The notes under the pieces were generated by a model. The model had not been told where the DNA came from. It did no database searches and was given only the letters and a program-made list of their open reading frames with translations. A DNA stretch of 64,000 nt. It comes from a virus. The position numbers and the translations under genes were made by a program. The stretch spans positions 26,982-90,981 of IMG/VR virus record IMGVR_UViG_3300045988_122866; one strand, given 5' to 3'. Below, piece by piece: positions 18,360-57,259 of the stretch (positions are counted from its first letter, which is position 1; every line of letters starts with the position of its first letter).

Positions 18360-21239
18360 ATGGTTAATAAATTATATCCACCTATTATATCTGGAACTTT
18401 ACCAGCATTTGTTGGATAGGAAATTACTATTCCATTTCAAATGAATCGTGCAGTTAGTATGGTAGAAGTTTCAGGATTGTGTTATATAATTAAAACAGTA
18501 TCAAGCAATGTTGTAATTGCTTAGGGAACAACCGCGGATTTTACTCCAAGCAAAGTTCGCGGTTGCTTGGAACAAGGGTCTATTACTTTCAATATAAACC
18601 TTAAATCAATTACTAATAATGGAAAACCTATCCAGTATAGATTAAATCCAGGATAGTCTTATAAAATTCAATTAGCATATATTAATACTAATGGAGTAGT
18701 CGGATACTATTCTACAGTTGGTATTGCTAAATGTACGACTAAGCCCGCAGTTTATATAAAAGGTTTTGAAGATAATTTAGTAGGAATAAATAAAACAAAT
18801 TTTATTGGAGTATATGGCCAAAAAGAAAAAAATGATGATATTACTGAAAAAGTTTATTCATATAGATTTAAAGTATATGATGAAAATGGTAATATTTTTG
18901 CTGATAGCGGAGAACAATTACATAATTCAATCAATGATACAGAATTAAATGAAAGTTATGATAGCTTTGAATTAAATAAAGAATTACAAAAAAATAAAAA
19001 TTATTTTATTCAATATTCTATAACTACTATCAATAATTATGAAGCAGAAAGTGTTCGTTATCAAATTATTAATAGAGAAACTATTAATCCAGAATTACAA
19101 GCAACTCTTTCTGCGGTTATGGATGAAAATAATGGGTATGTAAAAATTAATTTAAATGGAATCCGTGATAAAAAGACAGGATTAGAAATTCCCACGACAG
19201 GAGCTTTTGCTTTATTGAGAGCCAGTAGCGAAGATGATTTTAATACTTGGAATACAATATTAAAGTTTAAATTAGTTGGTGAAACTCCTTCAAGAGAATT
19301 GTATAAAGATTTTACTGTTGAGCATGGATTTAGTTATCAATATGCGGTGTAGCAATATAGCGATGAAACCGCAGTCCGCAGTAATAAAATTTTCTCTAAT
19401 ACAATATACAGTATTTTTGAAGATAGTTTTTTATATAGTAATGGACAGTTATTAAAAATAAGATTTAATCCAAAAGTAAGTAGTTTTAAAATTAATACTC
19501 TTGAAAGTAAAACTGATACTATTGGAAGTCAATATCCTTATATTTTCAGAAATGGAAATACTTATTATCACGAATTTCCTATAAGTGGTTTAATTTCTCA
19601 CCTTATGGATGAAGATCATTTGTTTATAGATAAATTGGGCGATGATGAAATTAAAGATTTTACATCAACTGATTTGACTAACTATAATATTAATATAGAG
19701 CGTCAATTTAAAACTAAGGCTTTAGAATTTTTAACTGATGGAGAACCTAAGTTATTTAAGTCTCCAACCGAAGGAAACTTTATTGTGCGTTTGTTAAATG
19801 TAAGTTTAAGTCCAGAAGATAAATTAGGTCGTATGCTTCATACATTTAGCGGAACCGCCTATGAAATTGATAAAGTTAGTTTTGATAATCTCACTACTTA
19901 TGGATTTATTGATGCAGATCCGCCTGAAAGTGAAATTCTTAAATGGGATAGTATTTCTTTTGATGGATGGTATAAAATTAATGGGTATATTGATGACGTA
20001 AATACCTATATTGATAACTTAAAAGATGAAAATTTAACTTAGGCAGAAATTAATAAATTACAAGCAAATAAACAAACTTGTTTAGATAATTTATTACAAA
20101 CACTAAGTTTTTATCCTATGTTTGAATTACTTTATAATGGAGACCATTATAGCTTATAGACTAAAGATATCTTGGCTAATTCTCCTGCAATAACTATTCG
20201 ATTTGAAGGTTTTGCGCCGGGAGATAAATTTAATGTTGATGGAGAAGAAATTGTTATTGGTATTACGGGAGCTTATTTAATAGATCATGTAGCTCCTATT
20301 CATAGTGTAAAAATAATTGAATTATCCGATGTAGGATTACAACAAGGAACTATTGTATATTCTTATTATGGTAAACAAGCAAGTAAATTTGATACCATTA
20401 GCGATATTCAAGTTGCTGATTTACCTTTAGAGCAATATTATGGTACTGAAGGTAATATTTTAAATCTTTATAATGATAATTTCAAATATAAAATCACAAA
20501 AATTTATTTCTTGCGTTTTACGAAGCGCGAAGTATAGAAACTATATACTAATAATAGAGTTAATTTTTATATAGCTCCTGATAGGGCATTAGAAGATAAT
20601 AATTATACCATGGAGATTAAGCGTGAAGATTTTGATCCAACTTTAATCTATCATGTGTATGTGGTTAAAGAAAATGAAGAAAGAGATTATTATATTGATG
20701 GTTATACTAAAAAGGAAATTTATGATTCAGGTATTTTAGTAAATGAGAAAAACTGGGCCTGTAATATTAGAATAAATGAAGATAATAAATAGATTATTGG
20801 TATAGACCATAAAAATGAATATCAAATAAAAGATTTGACTGATATTACTTCTATTGAAATTGATCCTGGCGTTTTATGTGAATTGTCAGTACAACGTCAA
20901 GAAATAGTTTATTCTTTTGAAAATGATAATCAAACTACTTATAGAATTTTTAATGGTCAGACTTATACTACAACAACTATTTATCAATTAAAGCAAAATT
21001 GGTTAAGAGCTAAAAAAACTTTAAAAGATTTTAAAGAATTAGAACAAGATAAAAGTAATCCTGACTTCTCTAATGATGATCCATTCTATAATGTAAATCA
21101 AAATAATATTTAGGATTGTATAAAAAAATACAATAGAAAAGTAGCAGAATTACAAAAGATTATAGACGAAACTTATACTTTATTTATTGATACTTTAAGA
21201 AAGGCGGTAGAGGATTATGAAGACTCAAAGACAATATGA
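18360..21239 (+). CDS. Baseplate or tail-associated protein in the Tal/hub position, about 959 aa
   Basis: Frame 0 runs from ATG 18360 to TGA 21237-21239 through TAG only. It joins tool ORFs 19119, 19605, 20172, 20610 and 20835. Confidence 0.6.
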
Positions 21240-23523
21240 TACCGACTTTCTTAAAAAGTTAGATGAATTTAAACATAAAGTAGTTTATGCTCGTATTGAG
21301 CTACTAACATTTGATGAATTACCAATAGAAAGTATAGAGGGTAAGATAACCGGCGGATCAATTAATATTGATGGAACATCTGCGGTCCGCCGGTCTTGTT
21401 CTCTTACTATGGCCACGAATGAGAAATTATATAAACAATATTCTTGGGGTTTAAATTCTAAGTTTAGTTTGGCTATTGGATTAGAAAATAAAATTGATAA
21501 TAAATATCCAGATATTATTTGGTTTAATCAAGGTATTTATTTAATTACATCTTTTAATACTTCTCAAAGTGCTAGCTCATATAATATCTCTATTCAAGGT
21601 AAAGATAAGATGTGTTTATTGAATGGAGATTTAGGAGGAGATTTACCTGCTTCTGTAGATTTTGGACAAGAAGAAGTAATTACTTATAGTTATAATAAAC
21701 AAAATAGTATAACTAAAGATAATTATATAAAAGGTAAATATTGTTATATTGTTAATAGTGAAGAAGAAGCTAAAAAACATAATATTTATTATATTTCTAC
21801 TTAGAATAAACAAACTACTTATTATGTTTTAGATGAAGAAGAGTTTAGTAATAAAGAGTATTATTTAAGAGAGAGTTATTTGAATCTAATTTCAATTCCT
21901 ATTTAGACTATTATTAAAAAACTTCTTACAGTTTATGGCAAAGAAAAAGAAAGTAATATAATTATTAATGATTTAGACCAATATGGTTATGAGTTGTTAG
22001 CTAATAAATGCGATGAAACTATGTATTTTTTCAAAGACGCACAAACGAATAGAATAGTTAATGCTTCGATAGGGACAATGCCTACTTTATTAGATATAAA
22101 TAATAATAAAATAACTGATATGAGTAGTATTAAATTCGATAATTTAGGTAGTAATAAATTATTAGATAACGCTCCTGAACCGACTAAAGTAAGGTTGGTA
22201 AATAATGGAACTATTTACACTATTATAAGTCGAATAACTAATGAAACAGTTGGTTATCGTATTTGTGATTTAGTCTATGCAGGAGAGCTTATTACGAGTG
22301 TTGGTGAAAATATAACTAGTGTATTAGATAAAATTAAAAATATGTTAAGTTGTTTCGAGTATTACTATGATATAGATGGTAGATTCATTTTTTAGCGAAA
22401 GAAATTTTATGAATACCAATCTTGGAATAATATAGTAAAAAATTCTAATGGAGATAATTATATTGAGCCTGCGGTTTATTCTTCTTCTTCAATTTATTCT
22501 TTTAGAGATGGATAGACGGTTATTTCTTTTAATAATACTCCATAGATTGCTAATCTAAGAAATGATTTTTCTATTTGGGGATAGAGAGAAAGCGCTAGTG
22601 GGGCAGAAATCCCTATCCATTTAAGATATGCAATAGATCAAAAACCTATTCAATATACTACAATTATTGTGAATGATAATGATATAAATAGGTATAAATC
22701 TACAATGTATAATAATGATATTTTTGATACTATGAATCCGCAATTAGAACAAAAGACTTATAAAAACAAATGGTATCAAAGCGAAAATGAACCGGGAGTT
22801 ATTTATTGTGATTGGCGTGAAGTTTTATATCGTATGGCTGTAGATTATTATCAATATAATTATGCGGATGATTTTACTAGTAAAGTGGCAACCGCGAATC
22901 CTGATTTTTATCCTTCTGGAATAACTGGTTATGAAACTTATTATGTAGATTTATTTTCTTTTTGGAGAGATATTTATGATTATGATAAGTTAGATTTTAA
23001 AGAAGAAGTAAAGAATAATCCTGAGAATTTAAATTTCTGGTTTGATTTTATTGGAGAAGAAAATGCGGATATTGCTAAATACTCAGTTCAATTAATCGGA
23101 GATAGAACAAAAGCAATTAATGATACTAATATAAAAGTCATATGTTATAGAGATACACCTGATGTATTATTTATGACATAGACAGATTATGATTCTATTA
23201 TTTAGAATAATTATCCAATAGAAAGTGGATATATTTGGATTAATATTCCTTCAGGGTATGATAATTATTTTAAAATTAGTTCTAAAGGTAAGAGCGCAGT
23301 TGATGAAATTGAAGATTTACTTTATACAACAGCTTATTGTACGGAAAGTGTTTCAATTTCTACTATTCCAGTTTATTATTTAGAACCTAATAATAGAATT
23401 TATATTGAAGATAAAAGAAGTGGCGTTGAAGGAGAATATTTAGTTAATAAAATAACTATTCCATTAACTTATAATGGTTCAATGTCTATTAGTGCCACCA
23501 AAGCAATATCAAGAGTATATTAA
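21217..23523 (+). CDS. Baseplate or tail protein of about 768 aa
   Basis: RBS GGAGG precedes ATG 21217, which overlaps the upstream gene by 23 nt. Frame 1 runs to TAA 23521-23523 through TAG only. It joins tool ORFs 21217, 21994 and 22669. Confidence 0.6.
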
Positions 23524-23883: not shown

Positions 23884-26199
23884 ATGGGTTTTTATGGTAA
23901 TATAACTAATACTTCAAAAACAACCTTCGCTTTTGATAGAATTTATAATAATAGACTTCAAATGGATAATAATTGTGCTAGCGATGGAGTGTTTTTAGGT
24001 CGCTATGTTTTAGTCGAGTATGGTCTTCCAGCTTCTTAGTATATAATAGGCTATCTTGACAATAATGGGAATATGTATGATGATCCTACTGATAGAAGTG
24101 ATTCTCATATTATTTTATGCGAAAAAGGAAAAATGGTAAAAATTAGTAAAAGTAGTTATTGGTATTTATATACGGGAGATATCAAATCTGATGGTGCTCC
24201 GTATTGGAGATATCTTACTAGAATTACTAATGACAGAGTTGATGATGAATAGTATAATAAAAATTATCAAATAGATTATCCCGTTTATGGACGAGGATAT
24301 GATTCTACCGTTTGGATAAAACAATATATTAATAATCAAGAAACTTATATTTAGATTGCTGAATTAAATACTGTTGTTCCAAATTTTTCAATTTATCCAT
24401 TGCTTCCTCAAGACCCATATGTTGCGGTTGATAACGCTAGTATTGTATATCAACCAGGTAAGTATTATTATTACGATGAAACTGATAGTCATTATAAATT
24501 AGATAATAATGATACTAAAACTGAAGGACGTATTTATTATTTAGAAAGTGAACTTGGACCTGCTATAACTGCAGATCAAAGTAGTACAAATTTACTTTAT
24601 AAATTAAGAGTTCCTACTAATTTTCAACTTGATTTAGATGATAATAATATTTATTATAATAAAGAAGGGTTTAGTAAAACAAAACACTCTTATGATAATA
24701 CTACAAAAAATAGTATTAATTATAAATTAAGTTAGTCAGGATATAAATTTTATTATAATGTAGAATAGGATAATGTTGTTGGTGAACCGATTGAAGATGG
24801 CTATGACCGCAAATCACTTGTAGTAAAACTTCCTGCTCTTGGTAATGCAGTATGTGAAACTTATGATTTACTTTATGGTCAAAATCGTAATGATTCTACT
24901 ACTAATTTTGACAAAACTAATGTTAAGGGAGCTTTAAATACTCTTAATAAAAAAATGAATTTAGGAAAATTAGAGACCAATAAACTTATTTACTTTTCTA
25001 CTGAAACCGATAATGATATTAATGACAATTATATGAAATCTGCGACTATTCAAGGAGATAACCTAATTTCAATAAATGCAGATATCGAAAAAAATGGTGG
25101 AGCTATTAAAATTACCCATAATAATTTAGATGTAAGTAAAGCATCAAAAAATTATGGTAAAGATGTTGATTTTAGTACTTTTGGCTCTTCTATTACTTTA
25201 CCTAAATTATTTACAGATAGAGCTGGGCATATTGTAAAAGAAGAAACATTCTCAGTTAGTATTCCAAAAGGCTCTTATGAAAATACTAAAGAGGGTAATG
25301 TTCTTACTTCTTTAAGTTTTATTGATACTACCGGAGCTTTAAGTAGTGAAAAATCTTATTTAGGTACTTTAACGTTAGGAACTGGATATATTACTAATGA
25401 TAAATTAAATACTATTACCAAAGATACAACTCTTAATGATAGTATTAATAGATTGATTGATAATAGCGATAGCAAATATAATACTTTATTGGGTCAAACT
25501 AATAATAGTTTTGGTAAAGATACTATTCCAACTCTTTATGGCTTAAGACAAGGAATCAATAGTGATAGAGATAATATTAGTAATTTAAGCGATAAAATTG
25601 ATATTTTAAATGGAGCCGTATCTACTACTAATTCTGTTGCTTATAGTATTAAGTAGGCTATTGATAAATTAGATAAAACTGATAACAAGGTAGATAAACA
25701 ATTTGTTACGGCTGTAGAAGAAAAAGATGGTTTAATAACTGTTTCAAGAAGTGCCTTACAAGAAAATGATTTACCTATTACTTTTGATGGAACTTATAGT
25801 AGTAGCAATAAAGTTGCTACTATGAGTAGTTTAAATACTTTAAAAGCAAATCTTTTAGGCGATTATACTGGCACATTAGCTGATGTAAATACTTTAGCAA
25901 GTAGTAAATTAAATGAAGACGCAGTGCGCGGTCTTACGTATAATGCAACTTCTGGAACTAATGGAGCTAAAACCATAGCAGAAATGTTTGATTTAATTGT
26001 AGAATTATAGAATAAAAATACGTAGTTAAATACAACTATTAAGGCATTATAGGATAAAGACGCGGAATCTGATACGACTATTAAAGCATTATAGGACAAA
26101 GATATTGAATTAAATAATTTAATTGCTGGATTAAGAACTGATGTTGATGCTTTAAAGAATAATTCGAATAATACTGATACTCCATCTGAAACAACTTAA
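23884..26199 (+). CDS. Tail fiber protein of about 771 aa with a C-terminal coiled coil
   Basis: Frame 1 runs from ATG 23884 to TAA 26197-26199 through TAG only. The C-terminus has near-tandem heptad-like repeats (…TIKALQDKD…). Confidence 0.6.
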
Positions 26200-26869: not shown

Positions 26870-26883
26870 AGGAGTGAAAAAGA

Positions 26884-28545
26884 TTGAACGTTAAGTTTTT
26901 AAAAGGTTCTCAAGCCGAATTTGAAAATGTGGCAGGCAGATATAAACCTGGTGCATTTTATTTAGTAATTAATGATGATAAGTCCGCAGAGGACTATAAA
27001 AAGCCAAGCCGTCTTTATTATGGCGTAGATGAAAATAATTGTGTTCCTGTAAATCAAGGTATTAATGTAGTTGATACTACCGCAGGTTTACCTCAAAGTT
27101 TTGCTCAAAACACTGCTGGTGAATTTTATTATGTAAAAGATAAAAATATTTTATGTATTAATAATGGTAAAGGTTGGATTCAAACTAACACCGATACTGT
27201 TTTAGATACTAATAAAAAAAATAGCAATGTATCAGTAAACAGCAATCCTGAAAAACCTAATGGAGTTTCTATAACTAATACTATTGCTGACAGTAGTGGT
27301 AATATTATTACTGAGACTTATGATATTATAGGTAGCGATTATATCCAAATTGAAGCAGTTCCTGCTGTTGATGATAAAGGTGTAGACACTGTTAAACTGA
27401 GTTTAAAAGGAATCAATTATCAATTAAGCTCTTCTTTAAATGAAAAAACTTTAAATGTTAATTTGAAAAATACTGATACTGACGCAGGTAATTTTAATAT
27501 TATTGCTGGTAGTAATGTTAATATTGCTGAAACTTCTACAGGAAACTATACATTAAGTGTAAATAAAGCTGTTGATAGTATTGATGTAGTTAATCACGGT
27601 ACTGGTACTGGTTTTACTGCTTCTATTAGTGGTCCTGGTGTTGAAGGAGCTGGTAATGGTACGACTTTATCTGCTGATATTGATCCAGAAATTGCTTTAG
27701 AAGGCAAGACTGGTAGCTACAAATTTAAAGATGGCGTTTTAACTCTTCCTGTTTATAGCAAACAAGATATTGATAATCAACTTAGAACTATTAATGCTAT
27801 GGTATTCCGTGGCGGATTCCAAGTTAAAGATGGAGCTATTGCTTATGATAATTCTGATATTACTGAAATTACTGAAGGTAATACCTTTATTTATACTGGA
27901 GCCGAAGATACACTTTGGAATGGTCATTATTTACGTCCTGGTGATTTAATTATTGCTTCTGGTGAAGAAGTTAATGGGGTTATTACTGGTACTATTAATT
28001 GGACCTATGTTCCTTCTGCCGATGATCCTGTTACTGAAATTGAAGGAGCCAATGATAATAGTACTGCTGGTTTTATCATTAAACTTGGTTCTACTAAAAA
28101 ACTTTTAGATTATGCTCTTAACGGTGAAAGTGGTATTGTTTTAGAAACAAAAGTTTTAACAGATTCAAAAGGTCAACCTACTAATTCTAAAGTTGTTACT
28201 ATTAAACATAGTAATACTTTAACTGTAAATACTCCAGTTTCTCAACCCTATGCTGATGAACAAACTATTACTATTAATGAGCCAACTGAAATTGATGCTC
28301 AAGGGCATGTAATTAAATCTACTCAAAAAACTTTTACTGTAAAAAATACTCATCAAGAAATTGCTAATGCAGATTATACGGTAAATGGTACTGATACTTT
28401 AATTCCTAATCTTAAAGTTGCTGGTGCTGATCTTGAAGGCAAACCGCTTGTTTTCACTAGTAATAGCCTAAAGGTTAATGTTTCTGCGGCGACTGCGACT
28501 GATGATGCTAAAGTTAATTTTGAGTTAGAGTGGGGAACATTCTAA
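26884..28545 (+). CDS. Tail fiber / receptor-binding paralog B, 553 aa with no TAG codons
   Basis: Intact in the supplied track. The N-terminus (KFLKGSQAEFENV…FYLV) matches the shared anchor motif. Confidence 0.65.
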   Translation: MNVKFLKGSQAEFENVAGRYKPGAFYLVINDDKSAEDYKKPSRLYYGVDENNCVPVNQGINVVDTTAGLPQSFAQNTAGEFYYVKDKNILCINNGKGWIQTNTDTVLDTNKKNSNVSVNSNPEKPNGVSITNTIADSSGNIITETYDIIGSDYIQIEAVPAVDDKGVDTVKLSLKGINYQLSSSLNEKTLNVNLKNTDTDAGNFNIIAGSNVNIAETSTGNYTLSVNKAVDSIDVVNHGTGTGFTASISGPGVEGAGNGTTLSADIDPEIALEGKTGSYKFKDGVLTLPVYSKQDIDNQLRTINAMVFRGGFQVKDGAIAYDNSDITEITEGNTFIYTGAEDTLWNGHYLRPGDLIIASGEEVNGVITGTINWTYVPSADDPVTEIEGANDNSTAGFIIKLGSTKKLLDYALNGESGIVLETKVLTDSKGQPTNSKVVTIKHSNTLTVNTPVSQPYADEQTITINEPTEIDAQGHVIKSTQKTFTVKNTHQEIANADYTVNGTDTLIPNLKVAGADLEGKPLVFTSNSLKVNVSAATATDDAKVNFELEWGTF

Positions 28546-28606
28546 GGGCAATACTATTTAATAATAAATATAATTTTTTCTATTTTATATAGAAGAATGT
28601 TTTTAT

Positions 28607-28644
28607 GGGGAAAGATGAAATATTCTTTCCCCATATTTTTTTTA
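28607..28644 (+). terminator. Rho-independent terminator
   Basis: Stem GGGGAAAGA / TCTTTCCCC followed by ATATTTTTTTT. Confidence 0.65.
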
Positions 28645-28663
28645 GGATAGAAAGGAGTAAATT

Positions 28664-31600
28664 ATGTCTAAGATACGTTTTCGTCCTGTATAGGGTCCAG
28701 AAGAAAAAATAAAAGAATATCCTCAAAGCGATGGATATTTTTATGTGGCAACAGATACAGGCCGAATTTATTTAGATACGGCAACTGAAAATAAAATGCC
28801 AATAGGGTCTAGTGGTGTTCAGGTAATTTACGGTACAGATAATACTGTAGAAATTGAATATGATGCGGATGAAAACCCAGTGGCTTATTTAATTCTTTTA
28901 TCAAAATTATCTATAACAAATTGTCATATAGATGATTTAATTTTAAATTTAGACGGATGTTTTTATCGAATTTTAGGATTTGCTTTAAATGAAAACCGCG
29001 AAGAATGTGCGAGATGTGAAAAATTAACTGTCGCCGGGGCGGGCGGTGGCGGAGAAGGAGACTCTGAACAAAAAGTTTTAGGAACTGTTTCTTTAACAAG
29101 AATTCCACCCGATAGTCCTGTTGATGTTTTGAATGAAGAAAATGTTAAAGTAAAGGTATTGGTTAAATGTAGAACTGTTGGAGGAGTTCCACAATCTTCT
29201 TCTGTGCAAGGAATTATAACTATAAGCGAAATTAAAAGTGCTACAGAAAAAGAAATTTATTATACTTCTCCTCCTACTACTTATGAGCATAATATTCCGC
29301 AAGAAATTGATTTAACTAATATTTTAAGAAATTCATGTTCTAGTGAAATTAATTTTAGTATTTATTATAATCCTGATAAAGAAAATAATAGATTTTAGAA
29401 AAGCTCTGATACTATTAATATTAATAAACATCATCTTTCTTTTACTTGGAAAGAAAGTAGTTTTAGTAATGATAGTCCAGTTGATAATGGACAAATATCT
29501 GTTAGTTGGTTAATGTCTGAAGATATTGCTAGATCTGTTGAAGTTTATTTTGATGATTATTTAGTTTTAGATAGAACTTATAGTGATACTGATTCTTCTT
29601 CTGAAGATTCTTTTGTTATTACTCCTGATACAAATATATTAGGGACTGATAAAGTTTCTACTTTAAAAAATTATTTTACTCATGGTGAGCATATAATAAA
29701 GGCAAAGTTATATTTAATGAATAATTCTAAAAAAGGTACAGGAACAGATTTTATTTAGAAAGAAATCGTTATTCAAGAACCAGGCAATAAAATGCCTTTA
29801 ATTTGGGTACAAGATTTTAAAACAGAATATTATACTTATGAGACAATAAGAATTCCTTTTAAAGTATTAGATCCAAATAATAATGGAGCTTTTATAACTC
29901 TTTATAAAAATGGTGTTCAAGTAGGAACTAGAGAATTAGATAGTTCGCAAGTTAGAGAATGGCAATATTGGGAAATTACTAATTTAACTGTAGATGATAG
30001 TTCTTATTATACTATTAAAGTTGGTACTGATCCTTATTCTTATTCTCGTAATTTTAATTTTACAATTTTAATTGACCCTTTAAGAGATATGAAGTTAGTA
30101 AAAAAAGATAATTTAAAGGTTAATTTTATAGCTACTGGTCGTTCTAATTCAGAAGGAAAATTAGGTCGTGAAACTTATTTAATTAATAATAATAAATATG
30201 TAGAATTTAAAAATTTTAACTGGTATAATAATGGTTGGGTTTTTGATGAAAATAATACGACTTGTTTACGAGTAAGCAATGGTGCTGAAGTATCTATCCC
30301 AGTCGGAAAAATGGCTTTTAAAGATGGATCATCATCTGCTACTATTGAGATTCAATTTAAAATAAAGAATCCTCAAAATTATGCTAAAGTTATAACTAAA
30401 TATACTAGATATAAAGTAAGTAAAGATAATTGGGAAGATAATGATGCTTGGGATAAATTTAAAGCCCAAAATAAATATCTTAATTATGATGAGTTTTTAA
30501 CTAAAGAATATTTACCGACAACTAATTATACTTATGATGATTTAGAATATAATAAAATAGAACAAGATTTTAATTTAAAGAATTTAGTTTGTGCATATGG
30601 TAAATTAGAGAATTCTGTTTCTCCTGGTATTTATTTTAGTCCATAGGATGCTGTATTTACAGCTAACGGGGCTCAAGAAACAGTTTCAGTTGATTTTATT
30701 GAAAATGAAATGCTAAATCTTTCATTTGTTTATACTAAAAAGAAAAGTGATATAGAAGGCGGAAATTCTAAATTATTAGAAATTTTTATGAATGGCGTTT
30801 TAACTAGTGTTGTACGTTGTAGTAGTGATGTTTGGAATATTGATTCTGATTTCATTAAATTTATGTCTAATACTTGTGATATTGATATTTATAGTATTAG
30901 AGTTTATGATACAGATTTAACTATTCCTGAAATAGTCCAAAATTACGCTTTTGATAAGAGAAGTATAAAACAGTGGGACCAAAAAGATCTTTATGAAAAC
31001 AATACGGTATTAAAAGATGATGTATTTTCTTATACTAAAATGAAAAAGTATAATGATAATCATCCGACTGAACCTTTAATGCCCTATATTATTCTAAGGA
31101 CTACTAAAAATAATAAAAATAATACGGATAATAGATTACCTTATTCTAAAGCAAAAGGAAGCTAGGAAGGAACTTTAGAATTTGTTAACACTGCTTTAGA
31201 CGCTGCTTACAATAGTGGTGAATTAGAAAAAGTTGCTATAAAAGAAGGATGGAAACCTGTAATCGAAAAAAATGAAGAAACATAGGAAGAAGTAGTAAAA
31301 TATACTGCGGTATAGAATTATTATATGCATCATTGTCCTAGTTTTATAACTGTTCTTAATGGATGTACTTTCCAAGTTCAAGGGACTTCTTCACAATTTT
31401 ATCCTCGTCGTAATTATAAAGCTAAATGCAAAGAATCAATGCTTTTAAATAGAGGCCCATTTGCTGAAGACTATAAAAAAGCAGGAGACTAGTATAATGA
31501 AGATATAACTAAACATCCTTGTTATTTAGAGTGGTTTTATATGGATAATAAGACAGTCGGTACTACTAAATTTACTTTAAAAATAGATTTTATGGAATCT

Positions 31601-34600
31601 TCTGGAGATTATAATAGAGGATTTGCTAATTTAGTTAACGAGATTTATTCTAAACATCCAGTAGAAGACTATAAAGATTCTTTTGATAATTATAATTTAT
31701 ATGGAAATTTAGAAGATTATCGCACTTCGGTAAAAGGATTCCCCGTTTTAGCTTTCCATTATATGTCCAACGATGATAATACTTACTCTAAGGAAAATAG
31801 TAATAACTGTATTTTTATTGGCAAATATAATATGTTATTAGATAAAGGCTCAGATGAATGTTTTGGATTTAAGCCAAATAAAAAGATTTTACAAAATCAA
31901 ATTACGGGCAACCCTAAAGTAAGAGATATGGCAGAATGTTGGGAATTTTAGAACAATTCAAGAACTTTTTGCTCTTTCCGCGACCCTTGGAATCGTTATA
32001 AATTATCATTTAGAAATCCTAATATGGTAATCCCTCCAGATGGAGATAATCCTGAATTAGTTAAAGGCGCTCCAAAAGTCGTTGATTCTTTTGAACCAAG
32101 ATATAATCCAAATGATGATTTAATTGCTGATAATTTATTTAGTTTAAAAGAGTGGCTTGATCCAGATGGGACATAGACTAAGATTGTTGGGGAAGAATTA
32201 AAAAATGTAGCCCCAGATAGACTTACTAAAAAAGAAATAGTTGATGAAATTACTGGTATAAAATCTATTAAATGGATTATAAAGAACCCAGACGGAGAAG
32301 AAATAGAATTTAATGTTGCTAATGATACAAGTAAACAAGAATTACTCTTAGCTTTAATGTCTAACTGGGAAGACGCAGTTAGTTGGGTGTGGAGTACTTG
32401 TTTAGATTGCGATATTGAATTTGATGATGGATAGAAATTAAAAATTCCATCTATGGGCATTTATACTAAAGTTGATGGATTAGCTGAAGCTATATATGTT
32501 CCTAATGTCTATTATGTTGAAGATGGAGTTAATGAAAATGGAAAAATTATTTATAAATTAGCTTCTGAAGAATATAACTCTGAAACAAGATATTATAAGT
32601 AGATTAATGAAAATAATAGTTTAAAGTATGTAAGCATAAAACTTACAAATAATTCAGATAAAGTATATAAAGCAAATATTTATTATCTTTTAACTGATAG
32701 TAAAAATGAAATTTATGTATTAAGTTCTGATAAATTTAATTCTTCTTTAGATTATTATTCTTTTAATAAAAATGAAGAAGGTATTGAGGAAAGATGGAAA
32801 TTACCTAATCCAGTAACCTATGGCTCTATTACTTATACTAAAGATAGTAAAGAATACCGTCAAGCTAAATTTAAAAATGAATTAAGTAATTTCTTTGATA
32901 TTGAATATTTAGCTTCTTACCTTTTAATGACAGAAATTTTTGAATGTTATGATTCTCGTGGAAAAAATGCAATGTTTGCTTCTTGGGGACCTCAAAAAGG
33001 TAATATTCAAAAATCTACTGGCAAACAACATTATATTTGGTATCCTATCTTTTATGATATTGATACTCAATTAGGTATTAATAATACTGGTATCCCATCT
33101 TTTGAATACTACATTGATGCTACTGAAGAAGGAAGTTTTTCAACTAATGATAGTGTTCTTTGGAATAATTTTTACACTTTCTTTAGAAGTAAGATGGTGG
33201 ATAAATATAAGCAATTAATGGGAACTCAAAATAATTCTTATAGTCCAAATGATTCAAGAGTAAATAAAATTTTTACCAAAGGAGCAGGAAGCGGGGCTAA
33301 AAAAAGTGATATTGTAGATAAATGGTATCGTACTGATCCATCGGTATTTCTTGATAGCTATGCCGTTCTAGGAGACAGACCAATTGTTGCCTTAAGTTTA
33401 GACGAAGAATTTAAGTATATTATTCCAACAAACTCTAAAGCCAAAGATATGCCAGTGTTTGGTCGTTTGACTGATGGAGGTTCATATGAGGTTGAAGATG
33501 ATAAATATTTTTATGCTTTGCAAGGAGATAGAAATCTTTATCGCGCGCAATTTTTAGCAAATCGTCTTAATTACATCGACTCTTGGTTAACCGTTGGTAC
33601 TTATGCTAGAAATGGTGGAGGAAGTTATATCAGAAGTCGTATTTCTGCGAATAATCCTAAAAATACGTCTGATAAATGGATTGAAGGTACTAATACTCAA
33701 AATATGGAAGGATTAATTACAAATTCTTAGTATTGGAAAAATAATGCTGAATTCGGAGAAAAAAATCATATTTTTGATGGTGAGTATTGGATTAATATGG
33801 AACCCGCCCGCAATGCTTATGTCACTATTGGTACAGATGGAGAGAATTTTCCTTCAAAGAAATATAATGGTTTAGAACCAGTTAAATATGTAGCTCCTGA
33901 TATTAAAAAAGGGATTATGAGTAGTGGTAATTATAAAGAACAATTATATTATATTTATGGAATGGATCAAATGAAATCTCTCGGTGATTTAAGTAAATTA
34001 TATTTCCAAGAGTTCGCGGCTGAAGGAAAAATGGAGCGTTTAACTGATTTATTATTAGGATATGATGGAAAAGATGAAAGTGGTAATGAATATTTTAATA
34101 ATGATGTAAATGACTGGTCCTTCTCAAAAGGCGGAATGCCTTTACTTAAAGAAATGAATCTTTGTAATATTAACTTTAAAAAAGACTAGGGGGCATTAGA
34201 TTTAACTAAAAGTGAAAAACTTGAAAACTTTAGAAATACTAAATCTAATATCCCGAGAGTTAATTTTGCTCCTGGAGTAGCTTTAAATACTTTATATTTA
34301 ACCAATCGAACAAATTATTTAAGTTTAATAGAAGCTAATTTATTAACGAAATTAATAACTAACTATATATATCCTGAAAAAAATCCAATTACTGGAAAAC
34401 TTGAGGTCTCAGATGAAAATCGTGGTTTATATATTCAAGGTCTTACTGATGCTGAAGAAGGAAAAGAAAAAACCGAGATAAGAACTTTTGATATTCGAGG
34501 CGGTAATTTAGGTTATAATAGTTATGAATTGTTACGCAAATATATTTCAGCTAGTAAAAATAGTAAATTAGATTTATCTAATTGTATTATTAATTTAAAT

Positions 34601-36409
34601 AATGTTTAGTGGAGTCCATATAGACTTCTAACTGACACTAAAACAACTCTTGATCCAGAAAGAAAATCTTATTATAGAGATAATGGACATTTTTAGTTGG
34701 TAGCTATTCCAAAAGATTAGGTTAATAAAATAACAAAATCTGATATTAAAAATAATTAGATTTATTATTTAGATACAATAAATGGAGACAATAATAATCA
34801 TAGTATAATAACTGATTATAATTTATTAATTGATATTTATAATAATTATAGGGGTCTTAATACTAATAAGCCAGAAATATCTGGTGTTATGTATATAAAA
34901 AATAATAATTAGATTGATGAATCTATTATCTAGACTGAGTTATAGGATAAATACCCTGATTTAATAATTTTTGTAGAAAATGTTAAACAAGAATGTTCTG
35001 CCAAGTTTATTTTAGAAAAAGAAGATATTGATGGAGTATTAATTTAGGAGGTTCTAAAAACTTAGAAATTACCCTTATCTAGCAGTAAATTCTTTGATGA
35101 TCCAACAAATTCTTCTAGCGAAACTTATATTTCTTTTGGTAGCTTACAAGAAAAAATGCCAACTTATGATTTTAAAGGTTGGGAAGATGATACGGGGGAA
35201 TTAGTAATTACTGTTGGAAAAAATGTAAATGAAGAAGACGTTGTTTTAAAAAGCGATTGGAATTCTTTGTCTTTACAATCTAATAAAATGGATTATATTT
35301 TTAAAGCGAGATTTGAACGCAAATCTTATACGATCACTTTCGTTAATGGTGACCGCGTTATTAATGATTCAACTGTAAAGAAAGTATTTAATTATGGTGA
35401 AAGAATTACTGTTCCAGAAGAATTTTATTATTTTAATAATACAGAAGTATCTGATTTACCAGAAGGTGAAGACTCATTAGAATGGACTTGGAGATAGACG
35501 GGATGGGCGGATAAAGATGGAGTTAAAATTGATTTAACTAAACAATTAGCCTATGCTGACCGCGAATTCTACGCTGTTGGAGAGCCGATTAGTGTTTATG
35601 ATAATATTTTAACTAATGATTCTACTCATAAATATTATGATATTATAAATTCTGATGGAGAGTTATCATTTGTAATGACTGACTTAGCTAAGAATTTAAA
35701 AGGTAAAGTTACTTTACCTACAACTTATAACGGTTAGCCGATTACAAGAATTAAATATAGCCAAGTTAATCCATCAGCAGCAGTTGGTATTCAAGTAAAT
35801 CCTAATATCACTGCGATATTTTTTGCTCCAAAAGATAGCAATAAAATTTCTGTAATAGATGATTATGCTTTTATTTTAGATAGTGGGTTAGAATATTTCC
35901 AATTTAGTGATTGTTTAAAGAAAATTGGTACTAAAGCATTTTATCAATGTCCTTTAAGTCGTAATAACATAATTCCTTATTCTTCTTCTACTGAAGGTTT
36001 GACTTTTGGAGCTCAAGCATTTTATCAAAGTAAGATGGGTTCTTATTCTCCTTATAATTTAATTATAGAGGGATGCAAAGACGGTATTCTTAATTTTGAT
36101 ATAAATGCATTTTCTGGTCAGACAATTTTAAATATGTCTGGTAATTAGTTTAAAGGTTATACTGGCGCTATTCAAGTATAGATTGGTACTAATAAACACC
36201 CAATTAAACAAATTACAGCAGATAGCTCTGGCAATATTTTTACTCCTCGTCAAACTGGTATGCCTACAGTGGCTAATGGATACACAGGTCGTTTTAGATA
36301 TTATTATGTTGCTAGTTATGGTGAAAGTATTAAAAATACTTTACACAATATTTATGAAGCAATGATATCTAATAGAGCGAATTTTGAAGAAGAGCCTATT
36401 GTAAAGTGA
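28664..36409 (+). CDS. Giant tail fiber / receptor-binding protein of about 2581 aa with a BspA-type leucine-rich-repeat C-terminal region
   Basis: Frame 2 runs from ATG 28664 (RBS AAAGGAG) to TGA 36407-36409 with about 45 in-frame TAG and no TAA/TGA. It joins tool ORFs 28745, 29513, 29792, 30710, 31541, 32927, 33797 and 35156. The N-terminus carries the shared fiber anchor motif. The C-terminal third has a Flg_new / Listeria-Bacteroides-repeat-like segment and BspA-like LRR repeats (…ISVIDDYAFILDSGLEYFQFSDCLKKIGTKAFYQC…). Confidence 0.65.
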
Positions 36410-36418: not shown

Positions 36419-36619
36419 ATGGAAAAAGAAATTGTTTATAGATATATGGGTTCTAATGGTATTATTGAATCTTCTATATAGTTAACAGGAATTCCTGTGA
36501 CTAAATTATATAGATTAATAGCGGATTATAATAAAAAATTAACGAGAGATGGAAAAGAATTCTTTTCCATCTCTCCTTTAGTTCCCGAAGATGAATTAGA
36601 AGAATGGTATGAGGTCTAA
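36419..36619 (+). CDS. Small protein of 66 aa downstream of the giant fiber gene
   Basis: ATG immediately after the giant fiber gene's stop. One in-frame TAG; stops at TAA 36617-36619. Confidence 0.35.
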
Positions 36620-36653
36620 ATAGGCCAGAATACATTGATTTAAATATAAAAAA

Positions 36654-36697
36654 AATTAGGTTAAATAGGAAAAGAAACTATTTAACCTAATTTTTTT
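36654..36697 (+). terminator. Rho-independent terminator
   Basis: Perfect 15-bp stem AATTAGGTTAAATAG / CTATTTAACCTAATT followed by TTTTTTT. Confidence 0.7.
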
Positions 36698-36715
36698 AGA
36701 AAGGAAGAGATAGAT

Positions 36716-38395
36716 TTGATAGTTAAAAATGATAGTGTTATCGAACAAGCTAAATGGGAAGAGCTTCAAAAGAAAATCAATACTTTAGCTAAAGATAACT
36801 CAATAAAAAACGTTAATGGAAAAATCGTTGAAATAAAATCTATTGAAGACTATTATAGTAATATCACTGGTATCGTTCAAATGAAGAAATTAGATCCATC
36901 TGTTCTTCGTATACCTTTAGATGAACCTATTATAAATATAAACGCTGATACTCGTCAAATTGAATTAACTAAAGAATTTGGAAAAACTCAATTACTTACT
37001 GTTGAAAATGATCATTTGGCAGAAACAATTTATTTTCAAATTGATAGATATTTTGATCTACAAGATTTAGCAGCTGATGATATTAAAATTTATATTTAGT
37101 ATTATTTAAATGATCAAATTCAAGGTTATTCTGAAGCTATTTGCCCCGATATTGGTACTGCTGGAAAATTAATTTTTGGTTGGCAAATTAGTGATGAAGT
37201 AACTAGTGAGTCTGGTACTTTATAGTTTTCTATTATTTTCTTCAAAAAGAATCCAAAAGATAATAATAATTTAATGTATGTATTTAATACATTACCTGCG
37301 CAAATGGTTATTAATAAAACTTTAGATATTGATGAAGATTTAGTCACTGCGCAACCGGTTGATTATTTAACTGGGTATTTAGAAAGTTTAATTGATTCAA
37401 AGAAATCCGCGGGCTTTGGAGTTCCTGATAATGTGGCTTTCTTGACAAGTATTTTAAATAATAAATCAGTTTATTTAACTGGCGATAAATTATATGCTTT
37501 AGCTTATAATGATACTTTAAACAATCCAGATAATACTACTATTGAATATAAATGGATTTGTAACTATAGAGGAACTAATACTGAATTAAAAAATGGTATC
37601 GGCTATGAATACAAAAAAATTGTTGAAGATGGTAGTATTTTTAGTGGAGATATGACTTATAATGAGAAATTAACTTATTTCACTAAAAATGGAGACTCTT
37701 ATATTAATAGTAGCAGTGATATTAATCTTGAGAACTATACTGCTAAGAAAAACGATCTCTACCTAAAAGTTCAATACTGCGAAGTTGATGGATGTGGAAG
37801 TTATAGCGTTACCGCATTTGGTACAACTGCCAATCAAGTGAGTAAAGAAGTTAAATGGGCTGGATTAGCTATTTCTGTTGAAGGAATTAGTGAAGATTTT
37901 AGAATTGTTCTTGATCCTTCCCCTGATAATGGATGTTATTATGGTTCTTCTAATACTATTACTGCTGTTGGATAGAATGATGAAGGCGTTCAGTGTACTT
38001 ATCTTTGGAAAAAGAATGGCTCTGATTTTAGCACTGAAAAAACTGTAACTTTAACTAAAGAGGATAATTATACTTTATCAGTTCATGGTTATAAAAATAA
38101 AGACAATATAGATTATCCTACAATTAGTTTTACTAATTATTTTGACCCAACTAATTTAGTTCCTGTTATTAAAGAAGTTTCAATTGAAAATGGAAAATAT
38201 ATTGTTAAACTCGAAAATACTAGTGAGTTAGGCAATGGTATTTATGAATATCAATGGAAAAATGCGAATGGTCTTACTCAAAAAACAACTTCTGAAAATT
38301 CAACAGAAGTAGATGAAAATATTACTCAAGTAGCTGTAATTATCTAGAAAGGTGAAAGAAAATCAAAACCAGGAACCTTTAAGATTGAGGGGTAA
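36716..38395 (+). CDS. Structural protein of about 559 aa, paralogous at its N-terminus to the next gene
   Basis: TTG start after RBS GAAAGGAAGAG. Frame 2 runs to TAA 38393-38395 through TAG only and includes tool ORF 37274. Confidence 0.55.
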
Positions 38396-38400: not shown

Positions 38401-39021
38401 ATGATAACTAATCCAACTGATTATTATAGTGTTTTACATCAAATACAAGATGAAAACTTTCCAGTTAAGTATCCTGCTCTTCCAGCCCCAGAAGATGAAA
38501 AGTTAGTTTAGATAGATTTAAACTCAAGAACTATTAGTAATGAAAATAGTTATATTACAGTTGAAGGCGATCACGCTGCTGAAATTATTTATTTTGAAAT
38601 AGATAGATATTTTGATACTATGGATTTAACTAATATGATGTGTATTATTTAGTATATTAATGCTGATAATGAAAAACGCATTTATCCCGTTCCATATTAT
38701 GATACTTTAACTCACAAAGATAAAATTATTTTTCCTTGGGTTTTAAATTATAGTGCTACTAAAAAATCTGGTACTTTAAATTATATGATAACTTTTTATA
38801 AAATAGAAAAAGATTCTAATAATTTACTATATAATTTAAATACATTACCAGCAAGTCTTTAGGTTTATTCTAAACTTAATTTAGATTCTATCGTAAAAGA
38901 AGAAGATTATTATGTAATTGATGATAGCCAAGTAGTACAACAAATTTGGGAACGCTTAGCACGTTTAGAAGGATTTGTTGGCGGTAATGGGTTGGATGTT
39001 TATTGGATTGTTCTCGAATAA
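38401..39021 (+). CDS. Structural protein of about 206 aa, a paralog of the N-terminal region of the 36716 gene
   Basis: Shared motifs with the upstream gene: DH.AE.IYF.IDRYFD … NTLPA. Frame 1 runs to TAA 39019-39021 with 4 in-frame TAG. Confidence 0.5.
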
Positions 39022-47784: not shown

Positions 47785-50018
47785 TCTAATACTCCCGTAT
47801 GTTTTATCCTTGCTTCAACTTCTTTTTGTTTACCCCAGTTAAAAGCAGTTTTATAATTACCTGTAAGATAACCGGTCACACGACGTAATTGTTGAATATT
47901 GTGGCTTCCGCACACTGGGCAAGAATCATTAAATTCATCACAATAACCACATTCAAGACAAGTATCATTAGGAACATTTACTGCGAAATAAGGAATATCA
48001 TGATCCATAGCATAATTAACAATAGTTTCAAGAGCATCAATATTATGTTTTACCGTAGAATCAAGTTCAACATAAGTGATACATCCTGCGGATGAATAGC
48101 CAGTCAGCTCAGATTCAATATCAATTTTTTCAAATGGACTCATTTCTTTCCACACCGGAACATGAATACTGTTAGTGAAAAATTCTCTATCACTAACATT
48201 AGGGATAATTCCATACCTTTCTTTAAATTTCGTCATAGCTGTATAACAAAGATTTTCTGCTGGGGTATAGTATACACCAAAATTTAATTTATATTTTTCT
48301 TTATATTCAGCACATCTTTCTTTAAAGCGCTTTTCAATCTTCTTAGCAATTTTCATACCATATTCAGTGGTATGGTCTTCACCAACAAGAATTTGAAGGG
48401 TTTCCGCAAGACCAATTTGACCAATAGCAAGAGTTCCATGTTTAAGAGCGGAACGAATTCCTTCTTCTGGAACATAACCAGCCATGACATTATTTTCATA
48501 CATAAATCTCGCAGACCCAGGGTCTTGAGAACAAATCCATTCAAAACGCTCCATTAATTGAATACGTGCTTCATTAATCTTTCTATCAAGCAAAGCTAAG
48601 AAAACAGGAATAACATCTTCTTCTTGTCCTTCTTTCTAACATTCTTCTTTTGCTATCATAGCAAGAGTGGGAAGAATAATAGTAACAGGACAAATATTTC
48701 CACGTCCGTCTTTAAGCTGACCAAATCCGTTAATGTCCCAGCCATTCGCAGTTCTACATCCCATTGTAGAGAAATAAGTGCGAGGATCATTGATATCATA
48801 TCCTGCATTGCCAGACCAATCAACATTCGCGTAATTAGGATAAAGGCGTCTCGCGGTACTTTCTAATGCTAATCTATATAAATCATAATTAGGATCGCCT
48901 GGTTTGCGGTTAACACCTTTCATACATTGGAAAATTCCGCAAGGGAAAATCGAAGTTTTATGAAGTTTACCAAGACCTTCAATAGAAACATCTAATAACG
49001 CCTTAGTCACCATTCTGCCTTCTGGTAAGGTGCAAGTGCCATAATTAATACTCGTAAATGGTAATTGGTTACCGCTACGAGACTGTAAAGTATTAAGATT
49101 ATGATAAAGACCTTCCGCAGCTTGATGAGTTTCACGGACAGTCATTTTCATAGCATATTTATATGCTTTTGGAAATGATTTATAAAAATCATCTTCAATA
49201 GAAGTTTCTTTACTATAGCAGCCATCATATTTATTCATATCTAATCCTTCATATAAAAACTCAATACCATCATTGAAATGTTTAAAGAAAGATTTTCTTA
49301 CATAAGGAACCATAGTCCAATCTAAGTGAGTGGCACTAACTCCACCAAACTAGCAAAGGCTTTGGATTTGGAAAATAACAGCAATTAATTGAAATGCTGT
49401 ATTAATTGAACCCGCAGGACGAACATCTGCTTGACGAGTATTAAATCCATTAGCAAGTAAATCGTCAAAAGGAATACTTAAGCAATTATGAGAACCAACA
49501 TAATAAGAATCAAGATCGTGAGTATAAATAATATTATCAATATGATTCTTACGAGCCATTGGTGAAAGTAAATAATCAAGTGCAAGTTGCTTAGTAACAA
49601 CACTACTTGCTTCACCTGTGCGGCCGCCGAATGAATGTTCGTCAACGTTAGCATTTTGATTCTTTACATTATTGCCATCAAGTTTTTCACGAATTGCTTT
49701 AATAAAATCGTCTTTTTTATTACGAGCAACTTCTTTTTTATATCTATATCTGATATAAGCACGAGCAACATCACGTCGCTCAGAGCGCATTAAATAATCT
49801 TCAATCCAATCTTGAAGATCTTCTACTCCAACACTTCCATCAGGGAAATGATTTATTTGTCTTTCAATATCTTCCGCGATATCTTTTGCGGTATCATCTT
49901 CATATAATTTACCATCAACTTCAATAAATGCTTTATTGATAGCATTAATAATTTTCTTTTTATTAAATTGAGTTATACTTCCATCACGTTTAATAATATA
50001 CAAATTTTTTGCCTCCAA
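47781..50018 (-). CDS. nrdD: Anaerobic (class III) ribonucleoside-triphosphate reductase
   Basis: Three tool ORFs (49350-50018, 48636-49313, 47781-48593) lie in one frame and are separated only by TAG at 49350-49352 and 48636-48638. The C-terminus has the glycyl-radical motif RVTGYL and a Zn-ribbon Cys cluster. Confidence 0.9.
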
Positions 50019-50077
50019 ACTAAATATAGTAGTTCTTTTAGAATATTCTACTATATTTAGGTTTTGTTAGTAAATAA

Positions 50078-50683
50078 TTATTTATCTTGGTCCATTTCCG
50101 CCCATTGCTTAACTTTTTGAGTTAAAAGATCAACAATATTATTATAATCTTCTAATGTTTCATTTATCACAATATTGCACTTAATATCATTCATTAGTTG
50201 AAATTGAATTTCATCAGCAGTATATCTTCTAACGATTTCATTTACATCAGGATTTTTTTCTCTATTTAATTGCCTAATTAAGCGTGTCGCTTCTTTGGCG
50301 ATGATATAATATATCTCTAATTCAATTCTATCATCTTTAAGAAGACTTATAATTCCTTCAGGATTAAAAACACCAATATTAATTTTACTGTCAGACAAAC
50401 TATCAATACTTGTGCCATAATACCAATTATTAAAAGAAGTGGTTTCTAACATTTTATTTTCATCAATTAAAGTTAAAAACTGATCATCTGAAACAAAATG
50501 ATAATTTTTGTCTGCTATTTCTTTTTCACGCTTCGGGCGCGTAGTATGGCTTATAATAGGATTTAGGTATTCTTCTAAGTGGGAAAAGGTAGCCATCATT
50601 AGGCTATCTTTTCCTGCACCAGATTTTCCACATAATGCAATAATTTTATACATCTTCTTCAATTCCTCCTTGATAACGAGCAT
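50078..50683 (-). CDS. Guanylate-kinase-like nucleoside monophosphate kinase
   Basis: P-loop GKSGAGKDS and a TTRPKRE motif. Confidence 0.65.
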   Translation of the reverse strand: MLVIKEELKKMYKIIALCGKSGAGKDSLMMATFSHLEEYLNPIISHTTRPKREKEIADKNYHFVSDDQFLTLIDENKMLETTSFNNWYYGTSIDSLSDSKINIGVFNPEGIISLLKDDRIELEIYYIIAKEATRLIRQLNREKNPDVNEIVRRYTADEIQFQLMNDIKCNIVINETLEDYNNIVDLLTQKVKQWAEMDQDK

Positions 50684-54659: not shown

Positions 54660-54684
54660 TTATATTTATATAATATCATATTAT

Positions 54685-54948
54685 TTAATAATAATCAAAT
54701 CGAGAGATATAATTATCGCATATACTACGAATATCTTTTAAAAAATCAGCAAATTCCCTTGACCGAGATGATATCTTATGCATATTATCACGAACCATAG
54801 AATTTAACATATCTAATTCTACATTTAAGTCATGGGTAAAAAGTTCTAAATTAGAATTTAAATCCTAAGCTAAATCCGCATCCTTAAGAAACATATTATT
54901 TTCAAGTATAGCATTAATACTTGAATTTAAATTAGATGTATCTACCAT
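54685..54948 (-). CDS. Hypothetical small protein of about 87 aa
   Basis: ORF obtained by reading through one TAG; it sits between dnaE and the upstream gene. No RBS was checked. Confidence 0.3.
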
Positions 54949-55576
54949 TATTTTCTTCGTCTCCTTGAACTTTAAATTCAGTATTATAAATACTATTAAA
55001 TATATCTACGATAATATAAAAAAGACATCTTAAATGAGGTGGAATCCATTGAGGGGATAGACAAATAAACAATTCATCAGGAGCATCAATTGTTTCTAAA
55101 TTACATTCTATAATAGGAGTAGAAGAAAAATTAAATTTTCTATCTTCTGGATAATTAGTTGAATCTTCATTTCTAATCCAAACATAATTTTCTAATTTGC
55201 CTTCTTCTGATAGATATTTTACCCAATTTCCACAATTTAAATCTTCAATTTTATTTTCAATGTCTTTATCGGTATAAGCAATATCATGATGATGATCTAT
55301 ATTAATTAAAGATATAGTATCATCTATATTCTTATCGACATAAGTAGCAATCATTTCATGTGAAACAATAAAATGAATGTTTTCTTTTTTCATACTTTTA
55401 CTTAATTTTAATAAAAGCTGTAAAAGCCTTTTAAAATGAATGTAATCGGGTTTAGCAAATTTTAAAATTTCAAAATGAGAACATAATGCTTCCCAATCAT
55501 CAGTTGAATAATTGTTATAAAGTTGAATACAAGGAGACATTATAATATCAAAATCTATTGATAATATTTTTTTCAT
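54932..55576 (-). CDS. Hypothetical protein of 214 aa with an IDHHHD motif, possibly a phosphoesterase
   Basis: Intact ORF. Confidence 0.45.
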   Translation of the reverse strand: MKKILSIDFDIIMSPCIQLYNNYSTDDWEALCSHFEILKFAKPDYIHFKRLLQLLLKLSKSMKKENIHFIVSHEMIATYVDKNIDDTISLINIDHHHDIAYTDKDIENKIEDLNCGNWVKYLSEEGKLENYVWIRNEDSTNYPEDRKFNFSSTPIIECNLETIDAPDELFICLSPQWIPPHLRCLFYIIVDIFNSIYNTEFKVQGDEENNGRYI

Positions 55577-55579
55577 TTA

Positions 55580-57256: not shown

Positions 57257-57259
57257 ATT

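Follow-up and report, generated by a model that had tools for sequence, protein, structure and literature searches.

A TAG-recoded 296-kDa phage protein with a CotH-type kinase-like core, a probable modular tail fibre

We analysed a 64,000-nucleotide stretch of viral DNA (positions 26,982 to 90,981 of IMG/VR record IMGVR_UViG_3300045988_122866; hereafter the window), the source of which is a gut-type phage of roughly 193 kb that reads TAG as glutamine, and found that its plus-strand gene at 28664-36409 encodes a giant protein of 2,581 residues, probably a modular 296-kDa tail-fibre or receptor-binding-type protein. The largest and best-conserved module of this protein is a CotH-type kinase-like domain (aa ~800-1660), which had been overlooked, together with a LamG-like domain and a first leucine-rich repeat (LRR) solenoid, in an earlier note made from the sequence of the window; the C-terminal part described there, an Flg_new-like segment followed by a BspA-type LRR, is supported through the family profile and structure, and not through the protein's own Pfam score. 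From its N-terminus, the protein would be composed of an attachment motif, poorly characterised beta-rich repeats, a LamG-like lectin domain, the CotH-type domain, the LRR solenoid, two Flg_new units and a terminal BspA-type LRR with a cap (Table 1).

A single gene with TAG as a glutamine codon

Translation in frame 1 gives a single open reading frame (ORF) of 2,582 codons including the stop, in which each of the 27 internal stops is a TAG (the first already at codon 10) and the terminal stop is a TGA at 36407; the closest in-frame non-TAG stop upstream is a TAA at 28658. At the base composition of the gene, 2,581 successive codons would be free of TAA and TGA by chance with a probability of ~1e-74. 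The giant single frame of the earlier note is thereby confirmed, with no TAA or TGA splitting it, as is its size (~290 kDa claimed, 295.9 kDa computed with TAG as Gln, pI 5.0), and both peptides it quoted were found in the translation (YTITFVNGDR...EEFYY at aa 2222-2256, nt 35327-35431; FFAPKDSNKI...AFYQC at aa 2386-2429, nt 35819-35950).

The claim that the frame is one gene in which TAG is a sense codon (code 15) is likewise supported. TAG makes up 27 of the 81 Gln codons. Against its counterpart in L001, a 97%-identical relative known from an ENA contig of 192.9 kb, the gene has nine codon differences at TAG sites, all of them between TAG and a Gln codon (seven TAG<->CAA, two TAG<->CAG); because every such difference is an exchange with CAA or CAG, we read TAG as Gln. 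The TAG columns are also mostly Q in homologues, an observation that is partly circular if these were translated with code 15, and there are TAG codons inside folded domains (943 and 1096 within the kinase fold; 2358 and 2495 within the LRR). One unbroken gene is also supported by homologues of 2,100-2,800 aa that are collinear with it over the full length, and metaproteomics has confirmed that gut phages recode TAG to Gln (PMC9523058).

An opposing view would take the TAGs as true stops and the frame as several short ORFs in a row or as the remains of a pseudogene. Standard-code gene callers do split it, such that public databases hold fragments of the same sequence of 244 aa (JGI/IMG, 'hypothetical protein') and 371 aa (NCBI and ENA), and ARAGORN identified no tRNA, including no suppressor tRNA(CUA), in the 64-kb window, about one third of the ~193-kb genome. 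However, the TAA/TGA-free frame and the exchange of TAG solely with CAA or CAG effectively exclude this view, and the Q columns, the TAG codons inside folded domains, the TAG at codon 10 and the metaproteomic validation all speak against it, making it hardly credible. The gene is a concrete case of standard-code annotation shattering a 296-kDa phage protein whose full domain plan is revealed by recoding.

The start site is credible, because a Shine-Dalgarno-like GAAAGGAG lies 5 nt upstream of the ATG and a terminator-like hairpin with a T8 run precedes it. Promoter-like sites were no commoner than in shuffled sequence, and we claim no promoter.

N-terminal motif and tail-gene context

A hidden Markov model (HMM) built from the first 60 residues of the giant-protein family had one significant partner in the window, the fibre-like gene 39095-40222 (E 6.4e-6), and borderline matches at E ~0.05 to 40259-40669 and to the frame 26878-28542 (the latter E 0.058). 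The earlier note had the motif in common with three other genes; with one clear partner and two borderline ones, this claim is confirmed in part only. The motif is presumed to be an attachment module. Upstream neighbours of the giant gene, including 21217-23523, match PHROG tail families, and these matches, along with the motif common to 39095-40222, support its location in a tail-gene block, in which it is probably a late, structural gene.

A CotH-type kinase-like core

The central region of the giant protein has the CotH atypical protein-kinase-like fold. P0083 and P0088, two distant members of the family, score 47.3 and 31.8 bits against the Pfam CotH model (PF08757, cutoff 23.8 bits), and these matches map to aa 1066-1547 of the giant protein; P0083 also has a Laminin_G_3 match above its cutoff (29.6 bits) just before this domain, at the equivalent of aa 655-757. 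The residues listed in Table 1 for the two parts of the fold, together with Y1464, are invariant in a 47-sequence alignment and clustered centrally, and the D-x-R-x-K-N ... Y-D-x-D-T pair was present in 131 of 136 further representatives (each at least 1,200 aa). The motifs KAQFKSE...NYDGFVHNY and PWDYD of Bacillus subtilis CotH fall in ungapped register with AKFKNE...CYDSRGKNA and FYDID of the giant protein, placing D1430/N1435 on CotH D228/N233 and D1465 on D251, a mapping made by motif, as no alignment of the two is significant; the B. subtilis sequence used matches 5JD9 at E 1e-140 and has a numbering that fits the literature. CotH proteins with the substitutions D228Q and D251A are catalytically inactive (PMC7821199).

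Direct comparison was less rewarding: PDB sequences gave no match to the central-region profile (A3) even at E<=10, a phmmer search of the PDB with the segment of a Pfam-CotH-positive homologue gave a chance match only, the core alignment had an hhalign probability of 0.1 against CotH of B. cereus, and hmmsearch against two CotH sequences gave negative bit scores with short local motif alignments only. As these direct sequence comparisons are not significant, the CotH assignment and the catalytic mapping rest on fold, bridging homologues and motif register. The giant protein resembles the Bacillus CotH spore-coat kinase (5JD9/5JDA; PF08757) in having the catalytic-loop Asp/Asn and the metal-binding Asp in register, but the two are 13% identical, and in the phage the domain is interrupted by an insertion of ~235 aa and forms one part of a protein of 2,581 aa.

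The second half of this insertion (aa ~1161-1395) is beta-rich. Smaller relatives have a short insertion or none, and among close relatives no other segment is conserved so little. In distant homologues, by comparison, conservation is highest in the catalytic half (aa 1396-1660; ~50% identity versus ~20-45% elsewhere), and the CotH-like core is under the strongest purifying selection, a constraint stronger than that on the binding tip. Tyr-rich, beta-hairpin-like units of the form tYY...dG.Y.L....y....tYY recur within the insertion, and in the homologues P0050, P0058 and P0064 such units stand elsewhere, also within the LRR region that follows, so that they resemble a mobile mini-module.

An exchangeable C-terminal tip

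Following the kinase-like domain, we read aa ~1765-1995 as probably a first LRR domain, because the model has regularly spaced short strands there and the sequence an LxxLxL pattern. An AlphaFold model of aa 1660-2581 (pLDDT 82.7) has the InlB B-repeat fold in the Flg_new region, and the tip matches solved BspA-type LRR proteins in fold and at the profile level: the LRR_5 threshold is reached in 14 of the 18 aligned family members (best E 1.6e-56), and the family profile matches BspA-type LRR structures, first 4fs7 (E 4.6e-30) and then 4gt6, 4h09, PcpA and TpLRR. In the homologue P0027 the LRR_5 match maps to aa 2376-2486 of the giant protein, and an Flg_new match of 23.6 bits (below the cutoff of 27) maps to aa 2222-2305. 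The tip is thus like the BspA-family LRR surface proteins (TpLRR of Treponema pallidum, 6MLX; BACOVA_04585 of Bacteroides ovatus, 4FS7; PcpA of Streptococcus pneumoniae, 4CP6), from which it differs in that its LRR is short (~180 aa) and below the Pfam cutoff when taken alone, and in that it is a phage-borne tip and not a bacterial surface protein. A weak match of the giant protein to Cadherin_3 (E 0.032) was dismissed as noise.

The identities of close relatives vary from domain to domain. In P0011 and P0012 the body is 75-93% identical, but the BspA domain is only 43% and the cap 21-23% identical; in P0013, P0015 and P0016 the body is 48-78% identical, but the Flg_new, BspA and cap regions are 90-97% identical. 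Because these per-domain identities are mosaic, we conclude that close relatives have exchanged the Flg_new-BspA tip as a cassette, as is typical of a host-range or specificity module. A protein search for hosts or prophages with the tip cassette (aa 2160-2581) returned two short proteins only and no host clue. Such clean exchange of the tip offers a route to predict or engineer host range.

A large family that includes the Hankyphage tail fibre

A search of 5.8 billion proteins identified 90 matches, more than 60 of them of 2,200-2,870 aa and collinear with the central and C-terminal regions; among the 90, many had precomputed LRR_5 domains and a few had Flg_new, CotH, Laminin_G_3 or LTD. An exhaustive search of 1.84 billion cluster representatives (50%-identity clusters) with the core profile gave 4,096 matches at E<=1e-3, 2,875 at E<=1e-10 and at least 1,330 at E<=1e-30; the best 150 were mostly of 2,100-2,800 aa, with the domain usually between residues ~700 and 1,700. 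The 90%-identity cluster of the giant protein itself has 401 members, on contigs of about 188-198 kb. The gene had no match in a nucleotide search of 50,697 GenBank phage records; tblastn with the core against GenBank phages identified 28 records with 23-32% identity, mostly temperate Bacteroides phages, including Hankyphage p00.

The match in Hankyphage p00 (BK010646.1) is a 6,738-nt unnamed ORF straight after 'minor tail protein', with the variable repeat of a diversity-generating retroelement (DGR) at its 3' end. Its 2,245-aa product is collinear with aa 356-1888 of the giant protein and carries QGTSS, DQRAKN and YDGDT. The Hankyphage gene has been called a (putative) tail fibre gene whose variable region is actively diversified (PMC12135933; PMC6199706), and a viral family of 2,284-aa DGR targets with a CotH-like domain has been described by Roux et al. 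(bioRxiv 10.1101/2020.04.01.020958). The giant protein is like the Hankyphage DGR target (itself like the PC_00012-type targets of Roux et al.) in its size, in the place of the gene after a minor tail protein gene, in its Ig-like, LamG, CotH-like and first LRR regions and in its three core motifs, and the CotH-like kinase domain has already been noted in the literature. However, the two proteins are only 21-26% identical and their N-termini differ; the C-terminus is a DGR-diversified variable region of the C-type lectin kind in Hankyphage and the Flg_new and BspA-LRR cassette in the giant protein; and Hankyphage is a 43-kb temperate phage whose ORF is open in the standard code whereas the giant gene needs TAG as sense. 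A direct-repeat search of the window identified no DGR template repeat/variable repeat pair involving the giant gene, whose C-terminus is LRR and not C-type lectin; a reverse transcriptase was sought in the ORF map only. The giant gene is a non-DGR, cassette-swapping variant of the Hankyphage-type architecture.

More distant counterparts were identified by a Foldseek search of BFVD with the central model (E 3e-11 to 7e-8), namely gp353 of Bacillus phage G and crAss-like phage proteins such as cr124_1 ('spore coat protein-like') and cr52_1 ('internalin-like'), with 'CotH kinase' as a further annotation among them. The CotH-like fold of gp353, cr124_1 and cr52_1, and the internalin-like annotation of the last, suggest the same core idea, at 10-16% identity and with TM-scores of 0.25-0.36, which are low because of differing domain contexts. 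We found no experimental study of these large phage CotH/spore-coat-like proteins in the literature searched; the giant gene belongs to a large class, previously noticed and, by that literature, experimentally unstudied. Most members of the family come from phages that have not been cultivated, and the tail fibre of Hankyphage, a phage common worldwide, is one of them.

Function of the giant protein

We favour the tail-fibre reading because the N-terminal motif is common to 39095-40222, the neighbouring genes match PHROG tail families, and the Hankyphage homologue follows a minor tail protein gene; location in a tail module, an attachment motif in common with a fibre gene and mosaic exchange of the distal module are all found. 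The protein would be fixed to the tail or baseplate by its N-terminus, specificity would be set by binding of the exchangeable Flg_new-BspA tip to a cell-surface ligand, and the CotH-like core would supply a phosphotransfer-type enzymatic activity, which could act either in the cytoplasm during assembly or at or after adsorption. The earlier note called the protein a host-adhesion fibre; the tail context and the fold of the tip agree with this, but adhesion itself is something we infer, and the claim was to that extent overstated.

Several points weigh against the tail-fibre reading. The presence of the giant protein in the virion, its binding and its kinase activity are each a step beyond the data, and a kinase displayed externally would be one without an obvious ATP supply. 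The giant protein itself has no Pfam match to CotH or to Flg_new (PF09479; none at E<=1), and its core has no significant sequence or profile similarity to Bacillus CotH. The models were built on proxies, the central one (aa 795-1665) on the near-identical P0017 (one substitution, I1458V) and the C-terminal one on P0001 (22 substitutions), and the window, about one third of the genome, contains no suppressor tRNA. The protein's own LRR_5 score (PF13306; aa 2393-2454) is 19.9 bits, below the cutoff of 27.7, so that the absence of an LRR hit after table-15 translation, which the earlier note would have taken as refuting its reading, is narrowly what Pfam gives on the sequence alone; the family profile and the structures overturn this.

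The need of a kinase for ATP, which is cytoplasmic, is one reason to consider that the protein is instead an ejected or internal virion effector, with a CotH-type kinase delivered into the cell to phosphorylate host proteins for takeover and with LRR and lectin modules that recognise intracellular or envelope targets, not receptors. Some ejected virion proteins are very large, as this protein is, and its catalytic motifs are invariant across the family. CotH-bearing DGR targets have also been speculated to manipulate host signalling (Roux et al., bioRxiv 10.1101/2020.04.01.020958). However, we regard an effector as quite unlikely, considering that the N-terminal motif is common to a fibre-like gene, that the gene lies within a tail-fibre cluster, that the terminal domains match surface-adhesin structures, and that the tip is cassette-exchanged here and DGR-diversified in the Hankyphage homologue, both hallmarks of receptor-binding proteins.

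The absence of an extracellular ATP source would suit a purely adhesive fibre, in which the CotH-like domain has no catalytic activity and serves as a scaffold or binding module, much like the CotH invasins of Mucorales that bind GRP78, and the target is possibly host-animal mucus or matrix and not bacteria. BspA-type LRR proteins such as PcpA act as adhesins. The CotH homologues of Mucorales are invasins (PMC6561750), and mucus adherence has been proposed for the Hankyphage protein by Benler et al. (PMC6199706). Yet the catalytic Asp and Asn and the metal-binding Asp are kept across more than 130 diverged representatives, which is unexpected for a scaffold, and it is the catalytic half that is most conserved in distant homologues, so that we think an inert core unlikely.

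Within the tail-fibre reading, we tentatively raise the possibility that giant fibres of this kind are active enzymes, with a tail-borne CotH-type kinase that phosphorylates a component of the host envelope, a phage component or itself in a reaction that adsorption or infection requires, and with the exchangeable LRR or lectin tip targeting the enzyme. To our knowledge, kinase chemistry has so far been demonstrated for no phage receptor-binding protein. If true, this would be a widespread strategy among gut phages, given the at least 1,330 diverged clusters; the role of the central kinase-like domain bears on how many gut phages recognise or condition their hosts.

Features of the window and neighbouring genes

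Table 1. Features of the giant gene and of other parts of the window (positions in nucleotides of the window; aa, residues of the giant protein).
Feature	Position	Strand	Basis or remark
Terminator-like hairpin, 12-bp stem (28604-28635) + T8, tail TTTTTTTT	28604..28645	+	closes upstream gene
Shine-Dalgarno-like GAAAGGAG, 5 nt 5' of ATG	28651..28658	+	direct sequence reading
Giant gene, 2,581 codons + TGA, 27 in-frame TAG as Gln	28664..36409	+	translation, full-length homologues
N-terminal ~60-aa motif FRPVxGxE...GYxYxATDTxxIYLD	28664..28843	+	HMM, common to fibre-like 39095-40222
LamG / concanavalin-like lectin region, aa ~480-770	30101..30973	+	match of homologue P0083 (aa 655-757); rest from conservation
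CotH-like kinase fold, N-terminal part, aa ~800-1160	31061..32143	+	invariant QGTSS 906-910, K973, D975, E1094, N1098
Lineage-specific insertion in CotH-like domain, aa ~1161-1395	32144..32848	+	segment lengths, model, per-domain identity
CotH-like kinase fold, C-terminal part, aa ~1396-1660	32849..33643	+	YDSRGKN (D1430, K1434, N1435), FYDIDT (D1465, D1467)
Probable first LRR-type solenoid, aa ~1765-1995	33956..34648	+	short regular strands in model, LxxLxL pattern, generic LRR matches; boundaries inferred
Two Flg_new-like (Listeria-Bacteroides / InlB B-repeat-like) units, aa ~2160-2310	35141..35593	+	
BspA-type LRR (LRR_5) domain, aa ~2340-2520	35681..36223	+	Pfam, family profile, structure
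C-terminal cap, strand-helix-strand	36224..36406	+	model; exchanged along with LRR tip
Small 66-codon ORF directly 3' of giant gene, one in-frame TAG	36420..36620	+	position kept in relative L001 (17759-17959, 66 aa)
Replication module	44639-63955	-	NrdD, PolIII alpha, RecD-like helicase, DnaB
Anaerobic ribonucleotide reductase NrdD	47781-49790	-	E 3e-143; 2 in-frame TAG
PolIII alpha-type polymerase	50646-54659	-	no in-frame TAG
RecD-like helicase	55580-56773	-	replication module
DnaB-like helicase	62753-63955	-	no in-frame TAG

With TAG as sense, the ORF map of the window has a dense plus-strand gene array at 311-40669, with many TAG-rich genes. Among the other genes of the minus-strand replication module, 59044-60792 has six in-frame TAGs and 61463-62566 has none; because 59044-60792 and NrdD carry TAG, recoding is not strictly limited to the plus-strand late genes. 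The gut or anaerobic host suggested in the earlier note is plausible, as an anaerobic ribonucleotide reductase is encoded in the window and the closest relatives that the core has in GenBank are from Bacteroides phages and human faeces.

The 66-codon ORF directly downstream is possibly co-transcribed with the giant gene; it contains a perfect palindromic hairpin with a 14-bp stem (36544-36575), downstream of which lies an inverted repeat with a T-run near 36650-36700, and it could encode a fibre-assembly factor or act as a regulatory element. Just beyond it, the adjoining plus-strand genes 36881-38395 and 38401-39021 have a common N-terminal domain (motif TVE(N/G)DH(L/A)AE(T/I)IYF(Q/E)IDRYFD in both; DNA repeats D4/D8, 79-80% identical) and appear to be paralogous fibre- or adaptor-like genes. 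On the minus strand within the late-gene block, 40714-41430 encodes 238 aa, and its positional equivalent in L001 has a response-regulator receiver domain (PF00072), which is unusual in a phage structural region.

Upstream of the giant gene, the plus-strand frame 26878-28542 is, with TAG as sense, open well 5' of its first mapped ATG (27799), and its gene may be longer than mapped or have a non-ATG start. The fibre-like gene 23884-26199 carries at its 3' end a tandem 42-nt repeat (26004-26087, plus strand) of two copies, 74% identical, which encodes the repeated peptide TIKALQDKD in a coiled-coil-like tail. The heaviest TAG use in the window is that of the plus-strand ORF 6120-14606 (2,828 codons, 88 in-frame TAGs), which is coiled-coil-like and Q/K/E-rich, lies 5' of baseplate-like genes, and looks like a very long tape-measure protein.

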